From assembly GCF_030652235.1 (NCBI RefSeq), contig NZ_JAUSBA010000042.1, positions 1,205 through 65,204 of the forward strand: a stretch of 64,000 nt of DNA, in the 5' to 3' direction. The notes below the pieces were generated by a model that made no database searches, was not told the DNA's origin, and saw only the letters and a program-made list of their open reading frames with translations. Shown piece after piece: positions 1-34,603 of this stretch (positions are counted from its first letter, which is position 1; every line of letters starts with the position of its first letter). A program made the translations under genes and the position numbers. Source of the stretch: Cypionkella sp. (GTDB lineage: Bacteria > Pseudomonadota > Alphaproteobacteria > Rhodobacterales > Rhodobacteraceae).

Positions 1-365
1 CCTTCAAGCAGTTCGATGCCTTGCGCTTTCAATCGGTCTGCCGAGGCAAACACATCTTCGACTTCGAAACAAAGATGGGTGCCCCCGACTTCGGAATTCC
101 GCTTTGGGCGGGCTGAACTGTCTTCGCCGATGTATTCGAAAAGCTCGACATTGGTGCTGTCACCACACCGCAGGAAAACTAGATCGCGGATGCGGGTATG
201 TGCCGGTGTTCCAAGCTTGCGCTGCATGAAAGCGTCATCCACATCAAACGGGCCAGTGCGAAACACCTCGACCGCGCCAAAGACGGCTTTGAAGAAAGCG
301 ATGCCTTCCTCGATGTCGGGCACTGTGATGCCGATATGGTGCATCCCGAAAACATGTTCTGCCAT
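1..365 (-). CDS. VOC/glyoxalase family protein, truncated by the window edge (not in the ORF track)
   Basis: Manual translation from ATG at 365 after an AGGAG RBS: MAEHVFGMHHIGITVPDIEEGIAFFKAVFG...NVELFEY...GGTHLCFEVEDV; H-I-G-I-T-V-P-D and H-L-C-F-E-V are VOC metal-binding motifs. Confidence 0.85.
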   Translation of the reverse strand, partial: MAEHVFGMHHIGITVPDIEEGIAFFKAVFGAVEVFRTGPFDVDDAFMQRKLGTPAHTRIRDLVFLRCGDSTNVELFEYIGEDSSARPKRNSEVGGTHLCFEVEDVFASADRLKAQGIELLE

Positions 366-436
366 TCGATTTCTCCTTCTGCGAGTTATCTTTTCCTTGT
401 TTCACGTCAAAGGTAGCGCACTTATAGCAAGCGGAT

Positions 437-1636
437 TCAGACCCGCTCTAGCGCAATGGCGATACCCTGTCCGACGCCGATGCACATGGTCGACAGTGAC
501 CGCCTGCCCCCCGTCAAAGCCAATTCCAGCGCTGCTGTGCCAGTGATGCGCGCGCCAGACATGCCAAGAGGATGACCCAAGGCGATTGCGCCACCGTTGC
601 GGTTCACGCGGAGGTCATCGTCGGCGATACCCAAGTGCCGCAACGTGGCGATGCCTTGGGCGGCGAAGGCCTCGTTCAACTCGATCACGTCGAAATCGGC
701 GGCGGTAAGGCCCAGCCGCGCCATCAGTTTTTGGCTGGCGGGTGCAGGGCCAATGCCCATGATACGCGGCGGTACCCCCGCCGTGGCCCCACCCAATACC
801 CGCGCAATCGGGGTCAGTCCGTAACGCGCAGCCGTTTCGGCATTGGCCAGAAGTAGCGCCGCCGCCCCATCGTTGACGCCACTGGCGTTGCCTGCCGTCA
901 CTGATCCATTGGCGAAGATTGGCCGCAGTTTTGCCAGCGCCTCGGATGTGGTGGCGCGGGGATGTTCGTCCCGCGCCACCACCAACGCCTCGCCTTTGCG
1001 CTGCGGGACGGTCACCGCGGCAATTTCTTGGGCCAGCCGCCCGTTGGACTGTGCGGTTGCTGCCTTGGCCTGCGAGGCCAGCGCCATGACGTCTTGCGCT
1101 TCGCGGCTGATACCATAGTCATCAGCCACATTCTGCCCGGTTTGTGGCATCGAGTGGGTGCCATACGCCTTGTCCATCAACGGGTTTATAAAACGCCAGC
1201 CGATGGTGGTGTCGTAAATTTCGGCCTGCCGCGAGAAGGCCGCATCGGCCTTGGGCATCACAAACGGTGCCCGCGACATCGATTCTACGCCGCCCGCGAT
1301 CATCAGCCCGGCCTCGTCCGCCGCAATCGTCCGCGCCGCCATCAGCACCGCGTCCATGCCAGAGCCACAAAGTCGGTTGATCGTGGTGCCGCTCACCTCT
1401 AGCGGTAGGCCTGCCAGCAGCGCCGACATGCGGGCGACGTTGCGGTTGTCTTCACCCGCCTGGTTGGCGCAGCCAAAGATCACATCATCCACCGCCGCCC
1501 AATCCACGCCCGGATTGCGCGTCATCAACGCCCGCAAAGGCACTGCGCCCAGATCGTCAGGCCGGACTGATGCAAGCGCTCCGCCATAGCGACCGATAGG
1601 CGTGCGGATATAGTCGCAGATGAAAACCTCGGTCAT
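437..1636 (-). CDS. pcaF: 3-oxoadipyl-CoA thiolase
   Basis: Thiolase motifs NRLCGSG, NEAFA, GHPLG, MCIGVGQG; PcaF-type N-terminus; follows pcaIJ. Confidence 0.9.
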   Translation of the reverse strand: MTEVFICDYIRTPIGRYGGALASVRPDDLGAVPLRALMTRNPGVDWAAVDDVIFGCANQAGEDNRNVARMSALLAGLPLEVSGTTINRLCGSGMDAVLMAARTIAADEAGLMIAGGVESMSRAPFVMPKADAAFSRQAEIYDTTIGWRFINPLMDKAYGTHSMPQTGQNVADDYGISREAQDVMALASQAKAATAQSNGRLAQEIAAVTVPQRKGEALVVARDEHPRATTSEALAKLRPIFANGSVTAGNASGVNDGAAALLLANAETAARYGLTPIARVLGGATAGVPPRIMGIGPAPASQKLMARLGLTAADFDVIELNEAFAAQGIATLRHLGIADDDLRVNRNGGAIALGHPLGMSGARITGTAALELALTGGRRSLSTMCIGVGQGIAIALERV

Positions 1637-1637
1637 C

Positions 1638-2303
1638 TCAAAGCTCCGGTACGATCAAATCGGCCACGGTGCCCTCAAGATGCAGGGTGGCGGCCGTCAT
1701 TGCCTGCAATGCGTCCAGCGACAGCGCCGCCAGCTTTTCGCGCAGCACAAAGCGGCCACCAACAATATCGATCACCGCAAGGCTGGAGTAAATCCGCGTC
1801 ACGCAAGCAACGCCCGTCAGTGGCAAGGAACAGCGCTGCAGCAGTTTGGGCTTGCCGTCTTTGGTGACGTGATCGGTCATCACCGCCACCCGCTTGGCCC
1901 CATGCACAAGATCCATCGCGCCACCCACCGCAGGCACCCCTTTGGGCCCGGTGGACCAATTCGCCAGATCGCCCGTTTCGGCCACCTCATAGGCCCCCAA
2001 AATTGCGACATCCAGATGCCCGCCGCGCACCATGGCAAAGCTGTCGGCATGATGAAAGAACGCGGTGCCGGGTTTCAGTGTCACCGCCTTTTTTCCGGCA
2101 TTGATCAGATCCCAATCCTCAAGGCCCGGATCGGGGGCTTTTCCAAAGCCAAGGATGCCGTTTTCAGTATGGAAAATCGCCTCGCGGCCAAGAGGTTGGA
2201 ACTTGGCCACCATTTCAGGAAAGCCGATGCCAAGGTTGACATAGGCCCCGTCTTCGATGTCTTGCGCTGCGCGCCATGCCATTTGCGTGGGTGAAAGTTT
2301 CAT
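1638..2303 (-). CDS. pcaJ: 3-oxoadipate CoA-transferase subunit B
   Basis: YVNLGIG, catalytic ENG, GGAMDL motifs. Confidence 0.9.
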   Translation of the reverse strand: MKLSPTQMAWRAAQDIEDGAYVNLGIGFPEMVAKFQPLGREAIFHTENGILGFGKAPDPGLEDWDLINAGKKAVTLKPGTAFFHHADSFAMVRGGHLDVAILGAYEVAETGDLANWSTGPKGVPAVGGAMDLVHGAKRVAVMTDHVTKDGKPKLLQRCSLPLTGVACVTRIYSSLAVIDIVGGRFVLREKLAALSLDALQAMTAATLHLEGTVADLIVPEL

Positions 2304-3034
2304 GCGGCCACCTCTGGGTAAACTGCCCCGGCGCGGTTCAGGTCTTCTTCCTGCGCGGGATTTGGTGTCTCGACCACGCCCTGCACAAAGATGCCGGGGG
2401 TGATGACAGCCTCGGGGTCAATCTCGCCTGCTGCCACAATCCGGCTGACCTGCACGATGGTGACGGCCGCCGCCATGCACATCAAGGGGTTGAAATTGCG
2501 CGCCGCCATCCGGTAGGTCAGGTTGCCCAAAGGGTCGCCCAGATGTGCCTTGATCAGTGCAAAATCTGCCTTCAGCCAGCGTTCCTGCACATAAGGTCGC
2601 CCGTCGAACACCTCGACCGGTTTACCAATGGCAAGGTCGGTGCCATAGCTGGTCGGCGTGTAAAACGCCGGTATCCCAGCGCCGCCTGCGCGGATGCGTT
2701 CGGCCAAAGTGCCCTGCGGCACCAGTTCCAGCTCCAACCTGCCCGCAAGATACATCTGCGTGAACACCACCGGATCAGCCGAGCGTGGGAAAGAACAGAT
2801 CAGCTTGGCCATCATCCCCGCCTCGATCAGCGCAGCAAGGCCGACATGACCGTTGCCTGCGTTGTTGTTGACCACCGTCAAGCCACGGGGATGACCCGTC
2901 GCGAGAAAGCGGTCGATCAAGGCATGGATCAACTCAATCGGTGCGCCTGATCCGCCAAAGCCGCCGATCATCACTGTCGCGCCATCCGGGATACCCGCGA
3001 CCGCGGCGGCAAGATCGGGAAGTGTCTTATCCAT
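2300..3034 (-). CDS. pcaI: 3-oxoadipate CoA-transferase subunit A
   Basis: IGGFG, NNNAG, PQGTLAERIRAGGAGIPAFYT motifs; overlaps pcaJ. Confidence 0.9.
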   Translation of the reverse strand: MDKTLPDLAAAVAGIPDGATVMIGGFGGSGAPIELIHALIDRFLATGHPRGLTVVNNNAGNGHVGLAALIEAGMMAKLICSFPRSADPVVFTQMYLAGRLELELVPQGTLAERIRAGGAGIPAFYTPTSYGTDLAIGKPVEVFDGRPYVQERWLKADFALIKAHLGDPLGNLTYRMAARNFNPLMCMAAAVTIVQVSRIVAAGEIDPEAVITPGIFVQGVVETPNPAQEEDLNRAGAVYPEVAA

Positions 3035-3043
3035 GGGCCAGTC

Positions 3044-3376
3044 CTATTTCAGCGCAATGTATGTTTCAGGGTCCAGCGCCATAACACGGATGGCAACATG
3101 GGTATCGGTGGCGGCCTGCACCATGCGGCGCAGATGGGTGCAAACGGCCAGAACCACCTCTCGGCTGCGTTCCGATTTGGGCATGATCTGCATTTCAACA
3201 TTTACCCTTGGCAAGTCGGGCATGGCGCAAACCGGGATCACCGCAAACTGACACGCGGGCGCATCAACCCTCAGATCGCGGCACAGCATGTCGCGGATCG
3301 GACCAAGGGCGTTTGAAAGCCTTTCCCGGCAATCGGGATACAGCGCATCGTCAACATAGATCTTTACGTTTGGCAT
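3044..3376 (-). CDS. Tautomerase/MIF superfamily protein (CHMI-like)
   Basis: 110 aa beginning MP (Pro-1 after Met removal), double beta-alpha-beta-like pattern, operon-embedded. Confidence 0.65.
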   Translation of the reverse strand: MPNVKIYVDDALYPDCRERLSNALGPIRDMLCRDLRVDAPACQFAVIPVCAMPDLPRVNVEMQIMPKSERSREVVLAVCTHLRRMVQAATDTHVAIRVMALDPETYIALK

Positions 3377-3411
3377 CGTTGCCCTCGTTGCTGTTCGTGG
3401 GACCGATGGGT

Positions 3412-4443
3412 TCAGGCGGGCGGGTGTTCAAACAACAGGCGGGCGTTGTCGGGGTGTGCCGCCAAAACCCCTGCCTCGATCTGAAGCGCAACCTCGACCA
3501 CGCGTTGATTGACCGGGGCGCTGCGGCCATGGGCCTGTAGTATCTGCACCACCCAGCCATTCACCTCTTGCACCTCGGCCCGCCGTCCCTTGCGCCAATC
3601 TTGCAACGAGGTGGTCAGCGTGTCTTCGCGCGAAAAGGTTGACAGCACCTTTTCAAAAATCTCATCGACATAGCGTTCTGGATCATTGCTCATGGTGGGT
3701 GGCATTCCGATGATGGGCATGATCGTGGCGCCATCGGCAAGGGCCGCCTGCATCGCCTCGTACCCAGCGGCGCGCATCACATCCAGCATACCCGGCGCGC
3801 GCGCAGCATCGTTCAGCGCGGTGTCGATAATGGCCGAGGGGATCAGTTCGGCGGCGTTGACCACCAGTTTCATCCACTTGGCAGATCGGATATCCGTCGT
3901 CACCTCGACATGGCCGGAATGGCGCAACAGATCGGCCACGCCTTCAACCCGGTGCTGTTGGGCGGGGTCCAGCGCGCCCATGGCAAACCACGATTCGTCA
4001 TGATCGTTCTGGCGGTTGGTGACACCCGGCACCCACATGTTCGACGCAATTTCAATCACCGCGCCGATGGTGCGGTGACGGCCTACGACGGCGGCGATGT
4101 CTTCATGGGTCATGCCGTTTTGCAGGCCGATCACGAAACCATCGGCGGCCAGAACCGGCTTGATCAGTTGCGTGGCCCATGTGGTGTCATAGGCTTTGAC
4201 CACCAGAAAGATCAGATCGAAAGGCTGCTTGACCTCGGCCACCTGACATAAGTGCAGGGCAGGCACCTGCACGTTGATCTGCCGCGTGGGCAGGTTGACG
4301 GTAATTCCATTCGCGCGGATCGCCTCGATGTGCGCGGGCCATTGGTCGATGAACGTCACATCCAGCCCTGCAAGCGCAAAATCAGCCGCAATCGACGCGC
4401 CTTGCGCGCCAGTCCCCATAAACGCAATACGAGGGCCGGTCAT
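3412..4443 (-). CDS. Ketopantoate reductase (PanE/ApbA)-like NAD(P)H oxidoreductase
   Basis: GTGAQG Rossmann motif, VKAYD, LQNG, KWMKLVVN, SLQD...GRRAEV motifs. Confidence 0.8.
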   Translation of the reverse strand: MTGPRIAFMGTGAQGASIAADFALAGLDVTFIDQWPAHIEAIRANGITVNLPTRQINVQVPALHLCQVAEVKQPFDLIFLVVKAYDTTWATQLIKPVLAADGFVIGLQNGMTHEDIAAVVGRHRTIGAVIEIASNMWVPGVTNRQNDHDESWFAMGALDPAQQHRVEGVADLLRHSGHVEVTTDIRSAKWMKLVVNAAELIPSAIIDTALNDAARAPGMLDVMRAAGYEAMQAALADGATIMPIIGMPPTMSNDPERYVDEIFEKVLSTFSREDTLTTSLQDWRKGRRAEVQEVNGWVVQILQAHGRSAPVNQRVVEVALQIEAGVLAAHPDNARLLFEHPPA

Positions 4444-5291
4444 GCGGCACCTTTGTGCATCACGAAATCAAAGGTCGATCGCCATTTTGTTTCGCCTTCA
4501 GGTACTGGATCAAACGGCGCGATCAGGGATTGTTTCACGCCAAAGACGGCATCAGAGTGTAGATACTTATCACCCTCCACGAAAGTATGGGTGACGATGG
4601 TGTCAAATCCCGCGCGGCTGATGATGAAGTGCATATGCGCCGGGCGGTAAGGGTGGCGGCCCAGATGGCCCAGCATCTGGCCTACGGGACCATCATCTGG
4701 AATGGGGTAGGCCACAGGCTTGATCCCACGGAACCAATAGCGCCCGTCCGGGCCGGTGACAAAGATGCCGCGATTGTTGTGGGTCGGCTGCAGCCCCGGT
4801 TGCTGAACGTCGTAAAAACCATCCTCGTTGTCGGACCAGACGTCGATGCGGACGCCCTGCAAGGGGGTGCCGGCAAGGTCAGTAACGGTGCCTTCAAACA
4901 GGCAGGTTTCCTTGCCGCCCTCTTGGGTGATCGTCGCACCCATCGGATATTCCGGCACGCCGTCGACATGGAACGGCCCCAGAACGGTGTTTTCTGTGGC
5001 TCCGGTCGGGCGGCGATTGTTGATAGCGTCCACCAACATCGACACACCCAGAACGTCCGAAAGCAAGATGTATTCCTGCCGGTTGCCATCGCAGATCTGG
5101 CCTGTTCGGGTCAGAAACCCGATGGCATTGGCCCATTCTTCCTGCGTCAACTCCACATCCTTGATAAAGGCGTGCAGATGCGTGACCAGACGCGCCATGA
5201 CATGGGCAAGACGGGCATCCGTGGCCGGGCCCATCCGGCCGTTCACAGCCTCGACCGAATGGCTTTCGGTGAAATAGTCAATTGCGGTCAT
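4440..5291 (-). CDS. Intradiol ring-cleavage dioxygenase, hydroxyquinol/catechol 1,2-dioxygenase type
   Basis: LLSDVLGVS, TVLGPF, GFYDVQ, AYPIP, RPAHMHF (Tyr/Tyr/His/His Fe ligands); start set at ATG 5291 overlapping the upstream TGA. Confidence 0.9.
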   Translation of the reverse strand: MTAIDYFTESHSVEAVNGRMGPATDARLAHVMARLVTHLHAFIKDVELTQEEWANAIGFLTRTGQICDGNRQEYILLSDVLGVSMLVDAINNRRPTGATENTVLGPFHVDGVPEYPMGATITQEGGKETCLFEGTVTDLAGTPLQGVRIDVWSDNEDGFYDVQQPGLQPTHNNRGIFVTGPDGRYWFRGIKPVAYPIPDDGPVGQMLGHLGRHPYRPAHMHFIISRAGFDTIVTHTFVEGDKYLHSDAVFGVKQSLIAPFDPVPEGETKWRSTFDFVMHKGAA

Positions 5292-6379
5292 AGCCTTGTC
5301 CTTTCGGGTCCGGGTGATGCGGGCCGGGTTCCGGCCCAAGCGGCCTGCAACAGCGCCAGCACACCATCACGCGTCACGTCGCGCGGGTTGGCATAGGGGT
5401 TTTTCACGGCCAGATCAGCCAGGCGAGCCAGATCGCTTTGACTCACGCCCAAGTCTTTCAAAGCCGTGGGCGCCCCCAGCGACAGCGCCAGATCATAAAG
5501 CCCGCCGCCCAGATCGCCGCCAAACAGGGCGGCCGCCGGCCGCAAGGCGCTGTGCGCGGCTGCCGCGTTGAACGCCATCGTGTGCGGCAGCAGGATCGCA
5601 TGGGTTTCGGCATGGGGCAAATCCAGCGCCCCACCAAGCGTGTGGCAAAGCTTGTGGTGCAGCGCCATCGCCACCGCGCCCAGCACCGTGCCACACAGCC
5701 AAGACCCATAAAGCGCATCACCGCGCGCGGCCAAATCTGCCGGATCGCGGTAAATCGCAGGCAAGGCCCGTTGCAAAGCGGCAATGCCTTCGACCGCAAT
5801 AAGCGATGTCACCGGGTTGGCATCGGCAGCGTAAAGCCCCTCCGCCGCATGGGCCATGGCGTTCAGCCCGCTGGCCACGCTCATCGCCACCGGCAGGCCA
5901 AGGGTCAGTTCGGGGTCATAGATCACCGCCTCGGGACGGATGCGGGGGTCACGGCGGGTGGATTTCACGCCACCTTCGGTTTCGCCAAGGATATCGGTCA
6001 CCTCGGACCCGGCATAGGTGGTCGCCACCACAAGGTGTGCTGCGTCATTGCGCCATGCAATCGCTTTGCCCAACCCGATGGTGGACCCGCCGCCCAAGGA
6101 AACGATGCAATCCGCCCCACTTTGATCATAGGCCGTCAGCGCGCGGGCGGTGACGTCAACCGGCGTGTGCATCCGGGCCTCGGCAAAGACGCCCGCGGCC
6201 ATAGGACCAAGCCGGGCCGCCAGCCGATCTGCGTCATCCTTCTGGAATGGGGTCGACAGGATCAGGGCGCGGGTGCCACCGATCGCTGCAATCTCGTCGG
6301 CAACGTGACGCTGTGATCCCGCACCAAACCGCACCCGCACAGGGGCGGATTGGTAGATAAAGGTCTGTTCCATCGTCAT
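5288..6379 (-). CDS. Maleylacetate reductase (Fe-ADH family)
   Basis: LGGGSTIGLGKA, TTYAGSE, NAMAHAAE, LHHKLCHTLGG, HAETH motifs; next to the intradiol dioxygenase. Confidence 0.88.
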   Translation of the reverse strand: MTMEQTFIYQSAPVRVRFGAGSQRHVADEIAAIGGTRALILSTPFQKDDADRLAARLGPMAAGVFAEARMHTPVDVTARALTAYDQSGADCIVSLGGGSTIGLGKAIAWRNDAAHLVVATTYAGSEVTDILGETEGGVKSTRRDPRIRPEAVIYDPELTLGLPVAMSVASGLNAMAHAAEGLYAADANPVTSLIAVEGIAALQRALPAIYRDPADLAARGDALYGSWLCGTVLGAVAMALHHKLCHTLGGALDLPHAETHAILLPHTMAFNAAAAHSALRPAAALFGGDLGGGLYDLALSLGAPTALKDLGVSQSDLARLADLAVKNPYANPRDVTRDGVLALLQAAWAGTRPASPGPERTRL

Positions 6380-8886: not shown

Positions 8887-8981
8887 CGCAGCTCCCTCGG
8901 GCATGTCTTATCCTGCTGTCCTTGCGGTGCAATCTTACGGGGTCGGCCCCGGGCATGACCTGCCCGGGACCAAAGCTATTT

Positions 8982-10043: not shown

Positions 10044-11067
10044 TGTCCGTTTCCTCCGTTTTGGACTTTTGTGCAGTCTTGGTTGCCGCCTGTTTCCAGC
10101 GCAGCGAGTAAACACCGATCCCAAACACCAAGGCCAAAGCCTGAATGATGGTCTGGGCCGAAAAGGGCACACCGACAGCCAGCGCAAACTGACTTAACTG
10201 GTTCAGAAAGAACGCCGCGATGACGGTCGAGACTGGAAATCCGCGCCCCCCCAGCAAGGACGTTCCTGCCAGCACAACCACCGCAACCGATGGCAACAAC
10301 AGGCTGTCGCCCTGAAACGCGGTGGGTTCGCGGGTGATCCCGGAAATCAGGATCCCGGCCATGCAGTAGTGCAATTGGGCAAAGACATAAGCCATCGCCT
10401 GATAGAGCCGTACCCGCAGCCCAGCCGCGTGGGCAGCGGCAGGGTTTGCCCCAATCGCCTCAAACCGGCGGCCAACCACGGTTTTCTTCAGCACAAAGCT
10501 GACCAGCACCAGGATGGCTATCACAAACAGGATCGAGTTCGGGATGCCCATGATCTTGCCGCCTGCGATCTGCGCCATCATGGGTGTGGTGATGCGAGGC
10601 ACCCCGCCCGACACTGCAAAAACCGCGCCATACATCAGGGCGTTCATCCCGATGGTGGCGACAATCGCGTTCAGCCGCAGCACGCCGACAAGAATGCCAT
10701 TCGCCACCCCCGCCAAAATTGCGCAGGCAAAGGCAAGCGCGATGGCTCCGAGCAGGTGTGCGTCACTGCCGCCCGACATATGCGTGGTGATCACCACCGC
10801 CAGCGACACGCCCCCTGCCAGTGACAGATCGAACCCGCCCTGCTGCACCACCAGCATCTGGCCCAAGCCCACTATCGCAATGATCGCCGCAAATGGTAGG
10901 CTACCCGCCAGCCCCCCTGCCGAAATCGCTGACGGCGCAAAGAAGGCGCAGACCACGATCAGCGCAATTGTCGAAACCACCACCGTAACAAAGCCCCGTG
11001 CGGGTTTTAGTGACACCAGATTAAGCGCAAACCCGGTTGGGTCTGCTGATTGGTCGTACTGCGCCAT
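10036..11067 (-). CDS. Sugar-type ABC permease (RbsC-like)
   Basis: Multiple TM segments, GGFDLS, GRRFEAIGANPAAA, VVLAGTSLLGGRG. Confidence 0.88.
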   Translation of the reverse strand: MAQYDQSADPTGFALNLVSLKPARGFVTVVVSTIALIVVCAFFAPSAISAGGLAGSLPFAAIIAIVGLGQMLVVQQGGFDLSLAGGVSLAVVITTHMSGGSDAHLLGAIALAFACAILAGVANGILVGVLRLNAIVATIGMNALMYGAVFAVSGGVPRITTPMMAQIAGGKIMGIPNSILFVIAILVLVSFVLKKTVVGRRFEAIGANPAAAHAAGLRVRLYQAMAYVFAQLHYCMAGILISGITREPTAFQGDSLLLPSVAVVVLAGTSLLGGRGFPVSTVIAAFFLNQLSQFALAVGVPFSAQTIIQALALVFGIGVYSLRWKQAATKTAQKSKTEETDNV

Positions 11068-11095
11068 GGCCCCTCCCTTTCTGCGCCCGATTATC

Positions 11096-12076
11096 TCAGG
11101 CAATTTCCAATGTTATTTTCACCGCACGGGCCGGGTCTTTGCCCAGCGCGTAAGCTGTGATCGCATCATCCAAGCCAAAGCTATGGGTCTGGATCGGCGA
11201 CAGATCGATCGCCGTGCGTTCCAGAAACCGGATCGCGGCAGGCCACACACCGGGGGATCCGATACAGCCGCGTACTGTCAGATCCTTGATCTGGATCTTG
11301 CCCAACTCGACCGGAAATTTCTGGCCGATGTTGATGCCAACCATTGACACAAAACCCTCAGGCCGGGCGTAGTCGAAGACATTGGCCAGCGACGCAGCGT
11401 GCCCTGCCGCCTCGACCACCAGATCAGCACCGCCCTTGGTGATGTCAGTCACGGCCTCAACAGCGTGGCCTTCAGATGGGTCAACAGTGCCATAAGCGCC
11501 TAACTTCATTGCTATTTCACGGCGCAGCGGCACTGGATCAACGACGATCACCTTCGCTCCCATGCCAATCGCCGCTGCTGCCGATACCAGCCCAATGGTG
11601 CCGCCGCCCGAGACCACCACGGTCTGCGACGCATCCACGCCGCCATGGCGCAGCACCGCATAATAGCCGCAAGTGAAGGGTTCGATCAGCGCGCCCTTGG
11701 CGTCATCCACCCCGTCGGGCAGTTTGTGCAACCATTCCGGGCGGGCGGCAAAAAACTCACGGTTTGCACCGTCCATCGAAAAGCCAAAATGGTGGATACG
11801 CTCTGGCGTGCGGATCACACATTCGCCCACCACACGGTCACCACGCGCCAGACCCTTGACGTTGCGCCCAACCTCGACCACCTCGCCCACCCATTCATGA
11901 CCGGGCGTCACCGGATAAGAGATTGGGATGATGTAATTGCCCGACATAAGTTCATAATCCGAATGGCAAATGCCCACGCGGCGCGAGCGGATCATCACCT
12001 CGTTGTCAGTGATCGTCGGTATCGACACGTTGGTGACGACAGGCTTGTTCGGCTGATCGAAGATAAGGGCTTTCAT
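11096..12076 (-). CDS. Zn-dependent MDR dehydrogenase (sorbitol/threonine DH-like)
   Basis: GICHSD, GHE, GGGTIG; start MKALIF at 12076. Confidence 0.85.
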   Translation of the reverse strand: MKALIFDQPNKPVVTNVSIPTITDNEVMIRSRRVGICHSDYELMSGNYIIPISYPVTPGHEWVGEVVEVGRNVKGLARGDRVVGECVIRTPERIHHFGFSMDGANREFFAARPEWLHKLPDGVDDAKGALIEPFTCGYYAVLRHGGVDASQTVVVSGGGTIGLVSAAAAIGMGAKVIVVDPVPLRREIAMKLGAYGTVDPSEGHAVEAVTDITKGGADLVVEAAGHAASLANVFDYARPEGFVSMVGINIGQKFPVELGKIQIKDLTVRGCIGSPGVWPAAIRFLERTAIDLSPIQTHSFGLDDAITAYALGKDPARAVKITLEIA

Positions 12077-12101
12077 CTTGGTCCTCGTAAGAGTGTCTGG
12101 T

Positions 12102-13106
12102 TCAGGCCACGGTTTCGATGCGGCCACTGCGGGCCGAGGCGAATACCGCTTCCAGCAACGCAATATTGTTGATCAGATGGTCGGCAGTGATGGGATAACC
12201 GGCCCCGCGCACAGCACGCGCAAAGGCCACAAGGTTGTCTTTCACCGGTTCAGCATTGCCGATTTCGGTGGTGATGATCGGGCCGCCCGCCATCGCAGAT
12301 GTGACGATCCAGCCATCGGGGGCCTCGACATGCGCCTTATCCCGAATATCGATCCAGCCTTTGGACCCGAACACCGCAAAGCGCGAGATGAACGGGTTGG
12401 CCAGCGATGCCGACACATAAGACGTGCCACCGCCCTTGAACTTTATGAACGCAGCCACCGTATCGCCCTGAGGCAGATCGGACGACAACTGCTCGCAAAT
12501 GCACAGCACCGACTCTGCCGCCCCCAAAAGCCGCACTGACAGGTCCAACAAATGGATGCCCGTGGCCGTCATGCCCCCTGCCGGGGCCTGATCGGCCTTC
12601 AGCCGCCAGTTGTCACGCGCCAGTGACAGGAATTTATCATGGCTGAAGTTCGCCTCAATCTGGTGGATCCGGCCCAGCGACCCGGCATCCGCCATCGCCA
12701 GCATGTCTGCCACCGGAGGTTCAAACCGCCGCTCATGGCCCATGCCCAGCACCAGCCCCGCCGCGCGACACAGTGCGACCGACCGCTCCGCCTCGGCCTT
12801 GGTCAACGCCAGTGGTTTTTCACAGAAGATGTGCTTGCCCGCCGCCACCGCCGCCGCGATCTGGTCGGTATGCAGCGAATGGGGCGTGGCCAGCACCACC
12901 GCCTCGACGCTTGGATCGTTCAGCGCATCAGCGTAGTCTGCCGACAGGGCAATGCCTTTGCCCGCGCACAGCTCGCGCACGCTTTCAACATTGGGCTCAA
13001 CAGCGCGGACCACCTGAATGTCATCTGGTGCCGATTGCAGGACGGCCAGCATTTTCTGGCCCCACCAGCCCATGCCGACCAGCGCGATTTTGACAGGATG
13101 GGCCAT
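12102..13106 (-). CDS. Gfo/Idh/MocA family oxidoreductase
   Basis: GMGWWG, CEKP, GIHLLD motifs. Confidence 0.88.
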   Translation of the reverse strand: MAHPVKIALVGMGWWGQKMLAVLQSAPDDIQVVRAVEPNVESVRELCAGKGIALSADYADALNDPSVEAVVLATPHSLHTDQIAAAVAAGKHIFCEKPLALTKAEAERSVALCRAAGLVLGMGHERRFEPPVADMLAMADAGSLGRIHQIEANFSHDKFLSLARDNWRLKADQAPAGGMTATGIHLLDLSVRLLGAAESVLCICEQLSSDLPQGDTVAAFIKFKGGGTSYVSASLANPFISRFAVFGSKGWIDIRDKAHVEAPDGWIVTSAMAGGPIITTEIGNAEPVKDNLVAFARAVRGAGYPITADHLINNIALLEAVFASARSGRIETVA

Positions 13107-13390
13107 CAGCGGTTATCCACGCGCTTGGCAAACGGACGGATGGAAACGGTTTTCCACAGGCCCGCCTTGGCGAAGGGATCATTGCTGTTGAACGCCACAA
13201 CCTCGCCTAGGTTTGCGGCCTCCAGCACGAAACAACTGCCGATCATCGTCGCCTCATCATCGGCCAAAAGGGGGCCAGAGATCACGGTTTTCACCGCAGC
13301 GGCAGCCAGATAGGCCTTGTGCGCGTCATAATGAGACAGCCGCAAATCGATGGCACCGTCATGGTCAAGGCAATGGACGACGTAATGCAT
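13106..13390 (-). CDS. YciI family protein (TftG-like dimeric alpha-beta barrel)
   Basis: R..H...H..YL, SGPLL, GSCFV, DPF motifs; 94 aa from ATG 13390 with GGAGG RBS. Confidence 0.8.
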   Translation of the reverse strand: MHYVVHCLDHDGAIDLRLSHYDAHKAYLAAAAVKTVISGPLLADDEATMIGSCFVLEAANLGEVVAFNSNDPFAKAGLWKTVSIRPFAKRVDNR

Positions 13391-13400
13391 TTTTGCCTCC

Positions 13401-14471
13401 TTACGCGGGGATGATGCGACGGGCGCGCAGCTCGTCGAACACATCGGTGAAGCTGTTGCGGCTGGATTGATAGGCGTCAAAGCCAAGGCTCCGACTGTTG
13501 GTCATGTCGGTGAAACATTCCAACGTGCGGCCCAGATCGGCGTCGCTATGCCACCATGAGGCCAGCTTGCTCACCGCAATATCCTGCAAGCCATGCTGCG
13601 CCACGATCTGCGACCAGATTGTTTGCGCATCGGCCATCTGGCCTTCCAGCGGGGTCGGATTGCCCGGATAGGGGGCAGCCTCGATCTCAAAATAATCGGC
13701 GATCTGCTGCCAAAGCCAATACCAACGGAACACATCCCCATTTGCGGTGTTAAAGGGGGTATTCGCCGCCTCGGGCGTTGTCGCGGCCCAGTGCAACTGC
13801 TTTGCCAACAGGCGCGCGTCGGTCACGTCGGCCACAGCGTTCAACTGCTCTGGCGAGCCGGGATAGACGAAAGGCCGTCCGGTGTGTTTGCAGATGCTGG
13901 CATAAACAGCCAGCGTTACCGCCATGTTCATCGCATTGCCGATGACAAAACCGATCATCGTATGCGGGCGATGCACAGACCAAGTAAAGCCGCGCTTTTC
14001 CGCCATCTCAAACAGCACGTCTTCTTGGGCGTAATAAAAATTCAGGCCAGGCAAACGCGGGCTGCTTTCCAGAAACGGCGTATAGGGTTTGACCTTTGCA
14101 TAGTCGTCGAACGATCCAAGATAATGCTTCAGCCCGGTCACAAGTGCCGCGTGGCGGATGGGGGCGGCGGACAGACCGTCAAAAAGATTGCGGATCATCA
14201 GGGCATTGACGCGCACGTTTTCAGCCTCATTGGCCTGACGCGACCATGTGCAAAAGAACACATGGGTCACATCGCCCGCGGCCTTTAGCGCAATCGCCGA
14301 CGCCGCTGCATCTTGCAAATCCGCCGAGATATGGCGATCTGAAAACTCCAGATCAGCGGCACTGCGCGACAGGGTGACCACGGTCCAGCCCTGTTCTTTC
14401 AACAACTGGCCCGTATAGCTGCCAGATAGTCCCGTGGCACCCACGATTAGGGCGACGTTGTTCTTGCTCAT
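13401..14471 (-). CDS. PRISE (progesterone 5-beta-reductase/iridoid synthase-like) SDR
   Basis: GATGLSG, THVFFCTW, TGLKHYLG, PF.E..PR, NFYYAQED, WSVHRP, WWHSDADL are characteristic of VEP1/PRISE-type SDRs. Confidence 0.8.
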   Translation of the reverse strand: MSKNNVALIVGATGLSGSYTGQLLKEQGWTVVTLSRSAADLEFSDRHISADLQDAAASAIALKAAGDVTHVFFCTWSRQANEAENVRVNALMIRNLFDGLSAAPIRHAALVTGLKHYLGSFDDYAKVKPYTPFLESSPRLPGLNFYYAQEDVLFEMAEKRGFTWSVHRPHTMIGFVIGNAMNMAVTLAVYASICKHTGRPFVYPGSPEQLNAVADVTDARLLAKQLHWAATTPEAANTPFNTANGDVFRWYWLWQQIADYFEIEAAPYPGNPTPLEGQMADAQTIWSQIVAQHGLQDIAVSKLASWWHSDADLGRTLECFTDMTNSRSLGFDAYQSSRNSFTDVFDELRARRIIPA

Positions 14472-14500
14472 CTTGTTGTCTTTCTTGCTTTGGTGCTTGG

Positions 14501-15568
14501 TCAAGTCGTGACCAGTATTTTCAGATGTTCGCCCGCTGGGTCCAGCAGAGCCTCAAATCCCTTGGCCACCACATCGGCGGCGTCGATGCGGGCGGTGATG
14601 ACTTTTTCCACTGGGAATGTGCCTGCGGCGATCATGCGGGCGATGCGCGGCCACATGTGGGTGGGGTAGCACCATGTCGCCTCGACCGTGATGTCCTTCA
14701 GCGCCCAAAGCATGGCATCAATGCTGGCGGGTTTCATGTGCAGGCCGACCTGCACCACACGGCCTTGCCGCCGCACGGCCTGCACACAGGCGTTCAAAGA
14801 TGCTTCCAGCCCCACACATTCCAGCGCCACATCTACGCCGACGCCTTCCTCGGTCAGGTCGCCGACCACTTGCGCCAGATTGGCGCTGCGCGGATCAACC
14901 ACCACCGCATAGGGCGCGATTTCCGATATGATGCGGCGGCGGTTAGGGTTGGGTTCCGACACGATGATGATAGCCGCTCCCGCCGCCTTGGCCGCAAGCA
15001 CCGTCAGCGCCCCGATCGGACCCGCGCCGGAAACCAGAACCGTCGATCCGGCGGTGATCCCACCCCGGTCAACGCCGTACAGGGCGACCGCTGCAGGCTC
15101 GATCATAGCGGCCTGATCATCGGTGATGCTGTCGGGCACGGGTTGCGCGTTATAATCCTTGATCACGGCCTTTTCCGCCATGCCACCCCATGCCCAGCTT
15201 AGGCCGACACAGCCCATCGACGGTGACAGATGATACAGGCCCCGCTTGCCGTAATAGTCATTGCGCGGCGACAACAGCGGTTGGATCGAAATGCGATCTC
15301 CGGCGGACACATGGGACACCGCATCCCCCACTGCCAAAACGCGGGCGGAAAATTCGTGGCCAAGGATCTGTGGATTGGTGGCTCCGGTGTAGATATGCGG
15401 TTCTTTCGGCGTGACGATGGGGCCTGCAAGGTATTCATGCAGATCAGTGCCGCAAATGCCGGTAACTGCAGGCGCAATCAAGACATCATCGGGCGCAAGC
15501 GTGCCTGATGGCTCTGCCACGTCTTCGACACGGATATCTCTTGCTCCGTGAAACCGAACTGCTCTCAT
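14501..15568 (-). CDS. 2,3-butanediol dehydrogenase-like Zn-MDR; first gene of the operon
   Basis: GICGTDLHEY..GP, GHEFS, GAGPIG, KILV motifs. Confidence 0.85.
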   Translation of the reverse strand: MRAVRFHGARDIRVEDVAEPSGTLAPDDVLIAPAVTGICGTDLHEYLAGPIVTPKEPHIYTGATNPQILGHEFSARVLAVGDAVSHVSAGDRISIQPLLSPRNDYYGKRGLYHLSPSMGCVGLSWAWGGMAEKAVIKDYNAQPVPDSITDDQAAMIEPAAVALYGVDRGGITAGSTVLVSGAGPIGALTVLAAKAAGAAIIIVSEPNPNRRRIISEIAPYAVVVDPRSANLAQVVGDLTEEGVGVDVALECVGLEASLNACVQAVRRQGRVVQVGLHMKPASIDAMLWALKDITVEATWCYPTHMWPRIARMIAAGTFPVEKVITARIDAADVVAKGFEALLDPAGEHLKILVTT

Positions 15569-15782
15569 TCGCGTGCTCCCTGCGTCTGTCGCGCGCCGCT
15601 TTGCATGCGGCAGGCGCTCCCCGTCGTCCCGTCATGGTCTGTCGTCAACAACCCGCCAGTTTCTCGGTTGGCGGCGAAGGTACAGCAGCACCCTCGCCAG
15701 TCGCGTATTCTTGGCGGGTCGAAATGACGCAAATTCACTCCCTGCCAAATCGATAACAAATCCTGCTCGGACCGAATGCGCA

Positions 15783-15827
15783 AATTTATCCGTTTCGAAT
15801 AAATTATCGCAAACACCGTCATTGCGA
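15783..15827. promoter_or_regulatory. Two adjacent inverted repeats in the divergent promoter (candidate operators)
   Basis: AATTTAT-N9-ATAAATT (15783-15805) and TCGCAA-N9-TTGCGA (15807-15827) in an AT-rich intergenic region. Confidence 0.4.
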
Positions 15828-15865
15828 AGTTTTACACACAAGATGAAGTTAGCTCGGGGCGCAGC

Positions 15866-16777
15866 ATGAACAAAGACGTTGCAGAGATATCGCGCTTGGG
15901 TGTCGCGGGCATGGGTATTGGTTGGATCGGTGCGGGTAAAATGGGTGCGCCCATGATCCGCAATCTGCTGGCCGCTGGCGCAAGGTTGTCCGTGAGCGAG
16001 CCTGATGACGATGCCCGTGATGATCTGGTGCGCGCCGGGGCAACGGCTGCGGAAAACCTGTCAGCGCACAGCAGCAACAGCATCGTCTTTGCCACCTTGC
16101 CAAACGACAAGGTGCTGCGTGACGTTGTGTTGGGCGCCGCAGGGCTTGCGCAGCATATGGCTGCCGGATCGGTTCTTGTCGAGATGAGCACGGTTTCGCC
16201 AGAATGTTCTGCTGAAGTTGCATACGCATTGAAAGATAAACGGATTTTCTACCTGCGCGCGCCACTTTCTGGAAGCACGGCCATGGCAGAAACGGCCACC
16301 CTGACGGTTTTGGCCTCTGGCGATCAACAAGGCTGGGATACAGCAATTCCTGCGATCAGGCTGTTGTCATCGCGTCAGTTCTACCTGGGGCAAGCCGAAG
16401 AAGCCCGATACATGAAGCTGGTGATCAATACGTTGGTCGGTGCCACCTCTGCGATTCTGGCCGAGGCCATTGCCCTTGGGGCCAGTGGCGGCCTCAGCCC
16501 GGCCAGCATGATGGAGGTGATTTGCGAAAGCGCCGTCGCCTCGCCCCTGTTGAAATACAAGGCCGCCGCCGTTGTCGCTCAAGACTATGCCCCCGCCTTT
16601 AGTGTGCAACAGATGATCAAGGATTTCAGCCTGATCAGCGATGCAGGCCGTGCCAACGGCGTGCCGCTGCTCACCACGGGGCTTATCCTTGAATTGTACC
16701 GTGCGGCGGCCAATTCAGGCTTGCGGGATCAGGATTTCTTCGCTTTGGTGAAATGGCAGTCCGAAATCTCCGCTTAG
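15866..16777 (+). CDS. Beta-hydroxyacid dehydrogenase (3-hydroxyisobutyrate/6-phosphogluconate DH family)
   Basis: GAGKMG, EMSTVSP, APLSGS, catalytic MKLVIN, KDFSL. Confidence 0.85.
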   Translation: MNKDVAEISRLGVAGMGIGWIGAGKMGAPMIRNLLAAGARLSVSEPDDDARDDLVRAGATAAENLSAHSSNSIVFATLPNDKVLRDVVLGAAGLAQHMAAGSVLVEMSTVSPECSAEVAYALKDKRIFYLRAPLSGSTAMAETATLTVLASGDQQGWDTAIPAIRLLSSRQFYLGQAEEARYMKLVINTLVGATSAILAEAIALGASGGLSPASMMEVICESAVASPLLKYKAAAVVAQDYAPAFSVQQMIKDFSLISDAGRANGVPLLTTGLILELYRAAANSGLRDQDFFALVKWQSEISA

Positions 16778-16790
16778 CTGGATCACACTC

Positions 16791-18521
16791 TTGCAGCAGG
16801 TCAACACATCCATTGCCCCCACGTCAGAACTGACCAGCCACGAGCTGTCTCGGATCGTTGATTTTCTGCGCAAACTGCGCGCGCCGTTTGATACGCATAT
16901 GCCGGGTGCGACAAAGGACGTGTTCTGGAATGTGGTCCTGGAACTGGTCGATGCCCACTTGCGCAGGCGACCGATAGACAAATCCGGCTTGGTGACGCTG
17001 GCTGGTGTGCCTTACAGCACCGGAAACCGTCTGATCACAACCATGATCGCAGATAACCTGATCCGTCAGGTGCCCCGCGGTGGCGGGCTGAAAACCCATT
17101 TTCTGGAACCAACGGATGTGTTGCAGCACAGCTTTGTGAACTATGCCACCCATGTGAAAGGCCATCTGGCCAAAACATTCGGGCTGCGCCAAGGGTCGGA
17201 GGCCAACGAATACTACTTTGGCGGCAGCTACTTTGCGGCGCAAATCATCTCTCCTGTGCGGGGCGATGACATTTCCTCAAAGGTGTTGGGCGATATTCGG
17301 TTCCTTCTGAACGACGACAACTATTTCTCGGCAATGCGGAATATGTGGTCTGACTTCCGCAATGATCTGGGCCGCAAAAGCAGCTTTCAATTGCTGCGCC
17401 TGCCCGACCTTTATACCAGTGCCCACAAGGCCTTTGCCGCAGCCGCACCCGACCATGATGTTGTCGCCCTGAACATGCCTTGGCTGGGCGAATTCGTAGA
17501 AAAAGGCTGCCTTGCCCCGCTGGATGGTCTGTTGACCGATGCCGCCATCAACCCGCTTGATTTCCATCCATCCGTCTGGGGCACGGGCAATTGGAAAGGC
17601 ACCCAATACGGTATCCCGCTGTATTGCACAGTTGAGATTCTGGCGGCACGCAGTGATCTGTTCGAAGAAAAGCGGCTGTCCTACCCAACGACGTTTGATG
17701 AAACAATTCGCGCGGCACGAGCGCTGCACAATCCCGCGAAAGAGTTTTATGGAATCGCCTGGAATGGCCAAAGGGGCATGCCGATTGCCAATTCCTTCAT
17801 GTTCTTTCTTGCAGCCTGCCAAAAAACGATCATCGAAATGCCGATGCACAACCACGAAAGTTTGCATGCACGTCGGTTTGAAAAGCTGAAACTGCAGATC
17901 GATACGACTGACTCGATAGACGCCATCGACTACATGCGGCAACTGGCCGAGGTTTCGCCGCCTGATATTGCCGAGGTCGATTGGGAACGTGGGCTGTCGT
18001 ACTTTATGTATGGACAGGTTGGGCTGGCCTATTGCTGGACGATGCGTGCTGCACGTTTTGAACATGAACTCAGCTCAAAAGTCGCGCGCCGGGTGGCCTA
18101 TCTGCCGCCCCCATCGCGCCGGTTGCGAAAGATAGCCGCCCCGATCGGCGGCTTTCTGATGACCATTCCAGCCAACGTCCAGCCTGCCCGCCAACGCCAG
18201 ATCATGAACGCCATAGCCTGGATGGTCTCGCCCGAAGCGATGAAAGCCCATGTTAAGAATGGCTTTCCCGTCGCTCCCCGCTTTTCCGTTTGTGCCGACC
18301 CCGAGGCTCTTGCCTCGTCGCCCATCGTCAGCATGGTGGATCAAATGGCGCGCAGGAATGAACTGGTCACATGGGCTCGCCCACCAATTCCAGAGTTCAA
18401 CCTGATCGAGACCATTCTAGGCACAGAAATACATGACGCTGTTTTTGGCAAAAAACCCCCGCGCCAAGCGCTAAGGGATGCCGAAAATCGCATACATCGC
18501 GAATTGCTTCATCGCGGCTGA
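16791..18521 (+). CDS. Winged-helix/solute-binding-protein fusion, probable cytoplasmic one-component regulator
   Basis: TTG start; ~130-aa N-terminal wHTH-like segment (GLVTLAGVPYSTGNRLITTMIADNLI) with no signal peptide, followed by a family-1 SBP domain (PWLGEF, YGIP, F..G.VG, GGF). Confidence 0.75.
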   Translation: MQQVNTSIAPTSELTSHELSRIVDFLRKLRAPFDTHMPGATKDVFWNVVLELVDAHLRRRPIDKSGLVTLAGVPYSTGNRLITTMIADNLIRQVPRGGGLKTHFLEPTDVLQHSFVNYATHVKGHLAKTFGLRQGSEANEYYFGGSYFAAQIISPVRGDDISSKVLGDIRFLLNDDNYFSAMRNMWSDFRNDLGRKSSFQLLRLPDLYTSAHKAFAAAAPDHDVVALNMPWLGEFVEKGCLAPLDGLLTDAAINPLDFHPSVWGTGNWKGTQYGIPLYCTVEILAARSDLFEEKRLSYPTTFDETIRAARALHNPAKEFYGIAWNGQRGMPIANSFMFFLAACQKTIIEMPMHNHESLHARRFEKLKLQIDTTDSIDAIDYMRQLAEVSPPDIAEVDWERGLSYFMYGQVGLAYCWTMRAARFEHELSSKVARRVAYLPPPSRRLRKIAAPIGGFLMTIPANVQPARQRQIMNAIAWMVSPEAMKAHVKNGFPVAPRFSVCADPEALASSPIVSMVDQMARRNELVTWARPPIPEFNLIETILGTEIHDAVFGKKPPRQALRDAENRIHRELLHRG

Positions 18522-34601: not shown

Positions 34602-34603
34602 AG

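Follow-up and report, generated by a model that had tools for sequence, protein, structure and literature searches.

Hydroxyquinol is normally reached by the hydroxylation of aromatic compounds. In this report, we analyse an operon of Cypionkella sp., a member of the Alphaproteobacteria, that may reach it from a saturated ring. The operon lies on the minus strand of a 64,000-nucleotide stretch of contig NZ_JAUSBA010000042.1 (RefSeq assembly GCF_030652235.1), which we refer to as the window, and it combines a ribose-type ABC importer and a set of NAD(P) oxidoreductases with the genes of hydroxyquinol cleavage. We propose a model whereby an uncharged six-membered carbocyclic polyol of the cyclitol type is imported, aromatised to hydroxyquinol and then cleaved, and we give this model nearly an even chance; the candidate substrates are a deoxy-inositol (quercitol), a cyclohexanetetrol or an inositol isomer. 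The functional coupling of the import and redox module to the ring-cleavage module is, in our judgement, very probable.

Open reading frame (ORF) listing, translation, Pfam and NCBIfam place 16 contiguous genes with overlapping or near-touching ends on the minus strand of window 1-15568, where a first-pass annotation of the same DNA had seen a packed run of at least 15. The family calls of that annotation all hold, and they can now be sharpened for the ATPase fusion, the 110-aa tautomerase and the type of dioxygenase. In order of transcription, the genes are:

14501-15568, minus strand: MDR1, a Zn-dependent medium-chain dehydrogenase (MDR) of the polyol-dehydrogenase type, at the start of the operon (Pfam ADH_N and ADH_zinc_N)
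13401-14471, minus strand: extended short-chain dehydrogenase/reductase (SDR) of the PRISE/VEP1 type, predicted to act as a reductase on enone C=C bonds (66.9 bits to Pfam PF22917, cut-off 27)
13106-13390, minus strand: YciI-family protein, candidate eliminase/aromatase (Pfam YCII, 53.8 bits)
12102-13106, minus strand: Gfo/Idh/MocA oxidoreductase (GFO), the cluster-specific marker (Pfam)
11096-12076, minus strand: MDR2, the second Zn-dependent polyol-type dehydrogenase (Pfam)
10036-11103, minus strand: ABC permease, BPD_transp_2, ribose/CUT2 type (Pfam)
8982-10043, minus strand: periplasmic substrate-binding protein, Peripla_BP_4 (Pfam)
6376-8904, minus strand: double ABC ATPase fused to a permease, 842 aa (Pfam, two ABC_tran domains and BPD_transp_2 at residues 563-829)
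5288-6379, minus strand: maleylacetate reductase (MAR; Pfam Fe-ADH, 461 bits to the solved 3w5s and 3hl0)
4440-5291, minus strand: hydroxyquinol-type intradiol dioxygenase (412 bits to 8r2x)
3412-4443, minus strand: PanE/ApbA-family reductase (Pfam ApbA and ApbA_C)
3044-3376, minus strand: tautomerase-superfamily protein of 110 aa (by AlphaFold2 (AF2) model, Foldseek and Pro-1)
2300-3034, minus strand: PcaI, 3-oxoadipate/3-oxoacid CoA-transferase subunit A (Pfam CoA_trans)
1638-2303, minus strand: PcaJ, CoA-transferase subunit B (Pfam CoA_trans)
437-1636, minus strand: PcaF, 3-oxoadipyl-CoA thiolase (Pfam Thiolase_N/C; annotated as pcaF in matching Paracoccus plasmids)
<1-365, minus strand: VOC protein of the glyoxalase/dioxygenase fold, which closes the operon and is truncated at the window edge (read from the translation)

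From the coordinates, ATGA overlaps of 4 nt join the ATPase-permease fusion to MAR, MAR to the dioxygenase, the dioxygenase to the PanE-like gene and PcaI to PcaJ; the other junctions are overlaps of 1-8 nt (such as YciI/GFO and permease/binding protein) or gaps of 1-77 nt, and MDR2 and the permease overlap if the permease starts at TTG.

Co-conservation of the import and redox genes with the ring-cleavage genes, as the first-pass annotation had expected, is borne out by the comparison of genomes. A scan of genomes for the binding protein found 27 loci, most of them from Paracoccaceae (Cypionkella, Tabrizicola, Gemmobacter/Paragemmobacter, Rhodobacter ruber and Yoonia), of which the 23 that extend past the transporter are informative; one locus (L027), in which each cluster gene is split into 2-4 frame-shifted pieces, was not counted, on the assumption of indel errors in a long-read assembly and not of pseudogenisation. 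The closest relative, a Cypionkella metagenome-assembled genome (L001), is 87-97% identical protein by protein. The dioxygenase gene directly follows the transporter in 21 of the 23 informative Rhodobacterales-type loci, and the PanE-like gene, adjacent to the dioxygenase, is found in all 23. The gene set recurs in Paracoccaceae, Roseobacteraceae and, reordered, in Rhizobiaceae.

Because the scanned loci are mutually related, the stronger evidence comes from changes in gene order, a swap of the transporter, replacement of the dioxygenase and the distribution of the marker gene. In Rhizobium sp. WL3, R. tumorigenes and Sinorhizobium sp. B11, the transporter is separated from the dehydrogenases by the dioxygenase and MAR genes, joined in Rhizobium sp. 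WL3 and R. tumorigenes by the PanE-like gene. Across the four Rhizobiaceae loci in which it was inspected (L024, L029, L033 and L034), the PanE-like protein is 78-80% identical. R. indicum keeps the candidate regulator described below, a 3-hydroxyisobutyrate-dehydrogenase-like (HIBADH-like) gene, MDR1, YciI, GFO, MDR2, PRISE, the dioxygenase and MAR; its transporter is replaced by two other Peripla_BP_4 (ribose-type) ABC systems, and two classical SDRs are added. Among four Rhizobiaceae clusters, identity is 77-94% for the upstream enzymes, whereas the dioxygenases form two lineages that share only 56-58%; a classical Paracoccus cluster has a dioxygenase 78% identical to one of these two. Altogether, cluster dioxygenases come from at least three lineages, the upstream enzymes staying orthologous; therefore, the ring-cleavage gene has been replaced or recruited more than once and the association has been kept. 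Finally, GFO orthologues (at least 61% identity) occur in only nine PLSDB plasmid records: the five that were inspected all carry the cluster, and the match positions in the other four fit the same layout. A GFO homologue search listed only relatives at least 83% identical, hence no distant contexts.

These data bear directly on the possibility that an unrelated polyol or sugar operon and a hydroxyquinol module are merely adjacent, with hydroxyquinol derived from an aromatic compound by an oxygenase encoded elsewhere. Such an arrangement would suit two loci (L019 and L024) that have the upstream module without a dioxygenase nearby, and related bacteria do have classical clusters with the same dioxygenase-tautomerase pair. 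However, the coupling outlasts gene-order changes, a transporter swap and at least three dioxygenase lineages, the Rhizobiaceae dioxygenase and MAR genes are embedded between the dehydrogenases and the transporter, and stop and start codons overlap within one operon. In addition, none of the upstream enzymes is an oxygenase, hydrolase, kinase or aldolase, and with neither a kinase, an aldolase nor any other outlet to central metabolism, the upstream module would have no end point without the ring-cleavage genes. We consider mere adjacency highly improbable.

The lower half of the operon had been read as the route from hydroxyquinol to 3-oxoadipate, and the type of the dioxygenase, the strong MAR match and the PcaIJF domains support this reading. 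By its sequence, the dioxygenase falls firmly in the hydroxyquinol clade and not in the catechol/chlorocatechol clade: it has identical residues at most positions aligned with 8r2x ('6-chlorohydroxyquinol 1,2-dioxygenase') and reaches 220-250 bits to the hydroxyquinol dioxygenases 1tmx, 3n9t, 8r2v and 8r2w versus about 125 bits to catechol/chlorocatechol dioxygenases. The pcaIJF region, with 78% DNA identity to annotated Paracoccus pcaIJF, was the sole match in a near-identity plasmid search. The PanE-like reductase reaches only 84 bits to ketopantoate reductases.

The call of a tautomerase for the 110-aa ORF stands by fold and by an invariant proline after the initiator methionine, although the ORF has no match in Pfam or NCBIfam and its match to DUF1904 is weak. 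Its AF2 model (pLDDT 86) is a duplicated beta-alpha-beta unit (strand-helix-strand twice) with 217 Foldseek matches at E <= 1e-3, and nearly all of the 50 listed belong to the tautomerase superfamily, with 7yxv, MIF, cis-CaaD and Cg10062 at the top (TM 0.6-0.76); Pro2, right after the initiator Met, is invariant in 25 homologues. By this modelled fold and the N-terminal proline, the protein is a member of the tautomerase superfamily. Its gene stands directly downstream of a hydroxyquinol-type dioxygenase gene in the classical clusters of Paracoccus pantotrophus pPAN2 and Agrobacterium fabrum pAt2, and the dioxygenase-tautomerase pair is found in monooxygenase-containing classical clusters on Paracoccus, Agrobacterium and Rhizobium plasmids (43 plasmid records; for example, L035 11157-12333 and L036 9152-10333). 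Since it follows the dioxygenase in classical clusters, the gene is part of the ring-cleavage module; the protein thus belongs to the lower pathway and not to aromatisation, which weakens the earlier reading of the island. Most plausibly, it acts in the enol-keto step from 3-hydroxy-cis,cis-muconate to maleylacetate; a dedicated tautomerase step of the hydroxyquinol pathway was not found in the literature searched.

The ring that is cleaved could also differ from hydroxyquinol. A cyclitol would still be aromatised, to 1,2,3,4-, 1,2,3,5- or 1,2,4,5-tetrahydroxybenzene or to pyrogallol, the universal PanE-like reductase would handle the hydroxylated cleavage product, and MAR and pcaIJF would be dispensable. 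Members of the PanE family are reductases of 2-oxo acids, and the presence of the PanE-like gene beside the dioxygenase in every informative locus contrasts with that of MAR, which lies within the cluster in only 12 of the 23, and of pcaIJF, found in about half. In the chemistry of Frost, moreover, myo-inosose dehydrates under acid to 1,2,3,4-tetrahydroxybenzene and not to hydroxyquinol (PMC11467972). Nevertheless, the dioxygenase is interchangeable with lineages of classical hydroxyquinol clusters, as the 78% identity noted above indicates, MAR and pcaIJF are both present in the window, MAR is present in all five inspected Rhizobiaceae plasmid clusters, and genomes without an in-cluster MAR may encode one elsewhere. 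Cleavage of a tetrahydroxybenzene or pyrogallol is, on balance, distinctly unlikely, and we retain hydroxyquinol as the ring cleaved in the proposed model.

Classical hydroxyquinol clusters, which serve the degradation of resorcinol, gamma-resorcylate and p-nitrophenol (for example, gra of Rhizobium sp. MTP-10005 and those of pPAN2 and pAt2), have the dioxygenase, MAR (GraC-type, 3w5s), PcaIJF and the dioxygenase-tautomerase pair in common with the window. In contrast, they also encode an FAD monooxygenase or a hydroxylase, and their transporters are of the Liv or MFS type. The window cluster has none of these; its importer is of the ribose type, and six NAD(P) oxidoreductases are encoded together with YciI and VOC. 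The lower half of the operon is an ordinary member of the hydroxyquinol/3-oxoadipate pathway, and the upper half would be a new peripheral route into that central pathway. No ring-hydroxylating oxygenase is found among the Pfam-annotated genes of window 1-18521, as the first-pass annotation had stated, and flavin or Rieske oxygenases are likewise absent from the downstream part of L001 and from the cluster and its surroundings in L012, L028, L029, L033, L034 and L037; FAD monooxygenases are present in the classical clusters with the same dioxygenase-tautomerase pair. Genes beyond position 1 of the window were checked in L001, where the operon ends after VOC and is followed by about 900 bp without a substantial ORF, and no oxygenase lies downstream; in L012, the operon ends after the dioxygenase, the PanE-like gene and the tautomerase. 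Also, no glycosidase, kinase or aldolase was found in any inspected version of the cluster.

Among the upstream enzymes, MDR1 has (R,R)-butanediol dehydrogenase (210 bits) and sorbitol dehydrogenase as its best solved relatives and is 87-97% identical in related Paracoccaceae loci and 69-71% in the Rhizobiaceae clusters; MDR2 resembles sorbitol, threonine and butanediol dehydrogenases at about 100-110 bits. Of the NCBIfam models, IolM and Tdh come nearest to both, but the scores reach a third of the cut-offs only, with 145.6 bits (MDR1) and 152.9 bits (MDR2) to the IolM equivalog (NF041097) against a cut-off of 450. GFO reaches 113.9 bits to the IolG equivalog (TIGR04380) against a cut-off of 355, and every solved relative stays below 92 bits. 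The operon is thus similar to the inositol systems iolGEDBCJA and Thermotoga IolG/IolM/IolN/IolO in having a Gfo/Idh/MocA protein, sub-threshold IolM-like Zn dehydrogenases and a CUT2-type importer, but no homologue of IolE, IolD, IolB, IolC, IolJ, IolN or IolO was found among the 18 window genes or the annotated relatives. Moreover, the iol pathways open the ring hydrolytically, whereas here the ring would be aromatised and then cleaved by an oxygenase.

PRISE enzymes reduce the C=C bond of enones, and the extended SDR is similar over its full length to the structures of plant progesterone 5-beta-reductase and iridoid synthase (E 1e-74; residues 5-355 to 2v6f). By sequence, it passes as a member of the family with a predicted enone reductase role; the gene is missing in the R. 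tumorigenes cluster and is therefore accessory. TftG eliminates HCl from the tautomer of 5-chlorohydroxyquinol to give hydroxybenzoquinone, and this enzyme, a 5-chloro-2-hydroxyhydroquinone dehydrochlorinase, is the best solved relative of the YciI protein (E 2.8e-12), whose His (in AHKAYL) and Asp (in NDPF) align with those of TftG and HI0828. As far as the account in PMC7641849 goes, TftG requires its His-Asp dyad. By domain and dyad, the YciI protein fits the TftG-like YCII family, and an elimination activity is predicted for it. The VOC fold stabilises vicinal-oxygen enediolates; the full-length VOC orthologue in L001 has 173 aa (Pfam Glyoxalase_4 and Glyoxalase), and the gene is found in most related clusters, Rhizobiaceae included. 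Small alpha+beta-barrel partners vary by host: Dabb proteins occur in Rhizobium sp. WL3 and R. tumorigenes (L029 10795-11094), an ABM 'quinol monooxygenase-like' protein in Loktanella (L028 5117-5428) and a second YciI in Sinorhizobium sp. B11 (L034 12260-12544), which suggests an interchangeable small catalyst of a tautomerisation or elimination step.

The tftEFGH genes of Burkholderia AC1100 (TftG dehydrochlorinase, TftH dioxygenase and TftE MAR) bring together, as the window does, a YCII protein, a hydroxyquinol dioxygenase and MAR; unlike them, the window has neither the TftF glutathione reductase nor the TftAB/CD oxygenases, and its YciI gene has dehydrogenase genes, in place of the dioxygenase gene, as neighbours. 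A chlorinated compound is improbable as the substrate, given that the hosts are from freshwater and plant habitats free of pollution. Still, the substrate might already be aromatic or quinonoid, such as dihydroxy- or tetrahydroxy-benzoquinone or another polyhydroxy- or halo-benzoquinone or hydroquinone, a tetrahydroxybenzene or a substituted hydroxyquinol. The dehydrogenases would then serve as quinone or ketone reductases, YciI would remove a substituent as TftG does, and PRISE and the PanE-like enzyme would reductively dehydroxylate the ring to hydroxyquinol. The kinship of YciI with TftG, its nearest characterised relative, the name of the closest solved dioxygenase (6-chlorohydroxyquinol dioxygenase), the occurrence of the transporter subfamily in non-sugar contexts and the absence of a dehydratase family from the cluster all fit this scheme. 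It fits less well that both MDRs are nearest to butanediol and sorbitol dehydrogenases and not to quinone reductases, that R. indicum recruits two further ribose-type ABC systems, that the candidate sensor has a carbohydrate-type SBP_bac_1 domain and that the cluster has no tft-type glutathione reductase or transferase. Furthermore, such quinones are scarce, reactive and mostly anionic, whereas CUT2 systems typically carry neutral polyols. An aromatic or quinonoid substrate is, in our view, unlikely.

Import of a sugar- or cyclitol-type compound had been claimed from the importer, and its family and fold are compatible with this, but the importer is not diagnostic of sugars. The CUT2 set is complete (Peripla_BP_4, BPD_transp_2 permeases and a tandem-ABC ATPase); the ATPase-permease fusion is unusual, and the same fusion is annotated in Loktanella and Rhizobium clusters. 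The binding protein has 1915 homologues, of which the best 120 are 74-98% identical. A PDB sequence search gave solved relatives no better than E 4e-7, and Foldseek with its AF2 model (pLDDT 84) gave, at 13-20% identity, a generic range of CUT2 proteins that bind ribose, allose, threitol, xylitol or inositol, so these matches do not tell the ligands apart. Homologues that are 35-42% identical, with the same fused ATPase-permease, sit in non-sugar contexts (L030, L031 and L032): beside nitrile hydratase and amidase genes in Thioclava, beside FAH-family, CoA-ester lyase and MaoC genes in Rhodococcus ruber, and beside dehydrogenase and lactonase genes in Mesorhizobium. With nitrile/amide, CoA-ester and lactone contexts, the subfamily is therefore not restricted to sugars, and the transporter alone is no proof of a carbohydrate-like ligand. 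The two extra ribose-type systems of R. indicum, however, argue for such a ligand.

An aryl O- or C-glycoside had been among the substrates considered in the first-pass annotation. Oxidation of the sugar at C3 by GFO, in the manner of DgpA and glycoside 3-dehydrogenases, would be followed by an elimination that frees a phenolic aglycone for cleavage; GFO is indeed weakly similar to DgpA (75 bits) and to glycoside 3-dehydrogenase models. Yet no DgpB/C-type lyase, sugar-phosphate isomerase fold, glycosidase or sugar-salvage gene is present in any version of the cluster, hydroquinone and other common aglycones would have to be hydroxylated before cleavage, and the binding protein is, by fold, of the monosaccharide-size class. 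These points, together with the fact that a pyranose cannot give a benzene ring, make a glycoside highly improbable as the substrate.

A pyranose cannot be turned into a benzene ring with these enzymes, and therefore the imported compound would already be a six-membered carbocycle; similarly, as there is no hydroxylase, the oxygens would already be on the ring of the substrate. For the cyclitol model, we infer all of the steps that precede ring cleavage. Uptake would proceed through the ribose-type (CUT2) ABC system, as the domain assignments indicate, and GFO and the two polyol-type Zn dehydrogenases would oxidise ring hydroxyls to ketones. Water would be lost from the hydroxy-ketones by beta-elimination, and ketone or enone reductions, for which the PRISE, PanE-like and HIBADH-like reductases are candidates, would set the redox level and stereochemistry. 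The last elimination and aromatisation, by the TftG-like YciI and/or VOC, would give hydroxyquinol, possibly via 2-hydroxy-1,4-benzoquinone. By family assignment, the hydroxyquinol dioxygenase would then cleave the ring in the intradiol manner, and MAR, PcaIJ and PcaF would lead from maleylacetate to succinyl-CoA and acetyl-CoA; in between, the tautomerase-fold protein, given its constant place after the dioxygenase, may aid the conversion of 3-hydroxy-cis,cis-muconate to maleylacetate.

The three candidate substrates differ in the number of oxidations and dehydrations. A deoxy-inositol needs one oxidation and two dehydrations, and a cyclohexanetetrol two oxidations and one dehydration. For an inositol, C6H12O6 minus 3 H2O equals C6H6O3, and its conversion to hydroxyquinol is therefore redox-neutral; such a route needs oxidising as well as reducing enzymes, which fits the presence of six NAD(P) oxidoreductases. 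In this route, GFO would make an inosose, loss of water would give a trihydroxycyclohexane-1,2-dione, the PanE-like enzyme would reduce the 2-oxo group to a deoxy-inosose, and two eliminations would yield hydroxyquinol; as an alternative ending, hydroxybenzoquinone would be formed by the TftG-like YciI and then reduced. The proposed chemistry, in which a hydroxyl is oxidised and water is then lost, is the same as in the chemical aromatisation of inososes by Frost, which is an acid-catalysed laboratory process and not catabolism. By such chemical conversion, 2-deoxy-scyllo-inosose reportedly gives hydroxyquinol.

A biological counterpart with a like logic is quinate/shikimate catabolism, in which a hydroaromatic polyol is oxidised and dehydrated to an aromatic compound without an oxygenase before cleavage and entry into the 3-oxoadipate pathway. 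However, no enzymes are homologous, the window cluster has neither dehydroquinase nor dehydroshikimate dehydratase, and the quinate/shikimate route ends at protocatechuate, whereas the route proposed here would end at hydroxyquinol, from a substrate without a carboxylate or having lost it. In Loktanella salsilacus, the cluster adjoins quinate/shikimate catabolic genes (L028 21459-27576: shikimate dehydrogenase, a dehydroshikimate dehydratase-like protein, a TRAP transporter, type II dehydroquinase and pcaF), and two hydroaromatic-to-aromatic routes are thus grouped together. The first-pass annotation knew of no described pathway with this gene set, and we found none in the literature searched, the coverage of which was incomplete, so a prior description is possible.

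Several points weigh against the cyclitol model. Its main weakness is that no recognised dehydratase family (IolE-type, dehydroquinase or enolase) is found in the cluster, so the eliminations rest by analogy on YciI and VOC, the only candidates. The upstream dehydrogenases score far below the equivalog cut-offs of inositol enzymes, the binding protein is like sugar binders at the level of fold only (at most 20% identity to solved ones), and its more distant homologues keep the non-sugar company described above. In addition, MAR and pcaIJF are confined to about half of the genome loci, and the upstream module of L019 and L024 has no dioxygenase nearby. The supporting loci come mostly from two alphaproteobacterial orders, and the counts are therefore inflated by shared ancestry. 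Finally, the sequence was found in metagenomic DNA runs only and in no RNA run. Of these metagenomes, one from groundwater matches 100% of the sampled words of the window; the others are from lake, wastewater, freshwater and ice. The host is a freshwater member of the Paracoccaceae, near the Cypionkella metagenome-assembled genome.

Beyond a 297-bp intergenic region, two divergent genes occupy the plus strand within 15866-18521; both fall inside the range covered by the first-pass annotation, which did not describe them. Together with a candidate operator, they are:

15866-16777, plus strand: HIBADH-like NAD(P) oxidoreductase (Pfam NAD_binding_2 and NAD_binding_11)
16791-18521, plus strand: 576-aa protein with an SBP_bac_1 domain (Pfam SBP_bac_1/8 at residues 207-511)
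15783-15805, no strand assigned: candidate operator, the inverted repeat AATTTAT-N9-ATAAATT (read from the sequence of the divergent promoter region)

The HIBADH-like gene is kept beside the cluster in Rhodobacterales and Rhizobiaceae, and the 576-aa protein is always paired with it opposite the operon. Homologues of the latter are annotated as 'extracellular solute-binding protein'; the protein itself has about 170-180 N-terminal residues without a family match, and no hydrophobic leader or signal peptide is evident. It is the only conserved candidate regulator across all versions of the cluster (also L028 5492-7222 and L029 976-2742) and may represent an undescribed one-component sensor architecture. 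The core of the repeat, AATTT.T.C..A..GG..AAATT, is conserved in at least 85% of 22 aligned intergenic regions (the window and 21 loci), and the 576-aa protein probably senses the substrate and controls both promoters via this repeat. A promoter and terminator scan of 15400-16000 found none, and no sigma-70 consensus. An 85-aa ORF (15565-15822), without a family match and sitting in the divergent promoter region, was treated as non-coding.

Past the divergent pair, a 129-aa minus-strand ORF (18528-18917) has a C-terminal part (FRGIVVMKGYF...GWFHSGDLG) reminiscent of the terminus of AMP-binding acyl-CoA synthetases; Pfam gave no match at 1e-5, and the ORF may be a gene remnant that bounds the island. 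Farther away, a separate minus-strand cluster (31038-42118) holds an AMP-binding CoA ligase (31038-32660), an acyl-CoA dehydrogenase (33465-34601), a 760-aa fusion of an FAD_binding_3 monooxygenase with an old yellow enzyme (OYE)-type reductase (36718-39000) and a kynureninase-like gene (40787-42118). The fusion, which is the only FAD_binding_3 protein in the window, has what we take to be the architecture of 2-aminobenzoyl-CoA monooxygenase/reductase, and the cluster as a whole resembles a tryptophan/anthranilate route through CoA esters that has nothing to do with the island. As a source of hydroxyquinol, the fusion was rejected, since it lies 18 kb away in this separate CoA-ligase/acyl-CoA dehydrogenase cluster.

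More broadly, it is possible, although we hold this only tentatively, that two alphaproteobacterial orders have an oxygenase-independent aromatising route that converts a cyclitol common in plants or algae to hydroxyquinol by NAD(P) redox steps and eliminations alone, and that this route provides the first physiological roles for YciI (as a dehydratase/aromatase), for bacterial PRISE/VEP1 and for an SBP_bac_1 one-component sensor. The cluster is present in several cultured strains, among them Loktanella salsilacus 1A07899, Rhizobium sp. WL3, Sinorhizobium sp. B11, R. tumorigenes 932, Tabrizicola sp. TH137, Paragemmobacter straminiformis CAM-8 and Gemmobacter aquarius, and the hypothesis is thus directly testable. 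If it is true, testable functions would be at hand for YciI and the bacterial PRISE/VEP1 homologues, both of which are widespread and largely uncharacterised, and there would be enzymes for making benzenetriol from sugars without benzene, now dependent on an acid-catalysed chemical step. Hydroxyquinol dioxygenase genes in genomes and metagenomes would not always be a sign of aromatic or pollutant degradation. Saturated ring polyols would be a new entry to the 3-oxoadipate pathway, and a large pool of plant and algal cyclitols would be linked to catabolic genes regarded as 'aromatic'.

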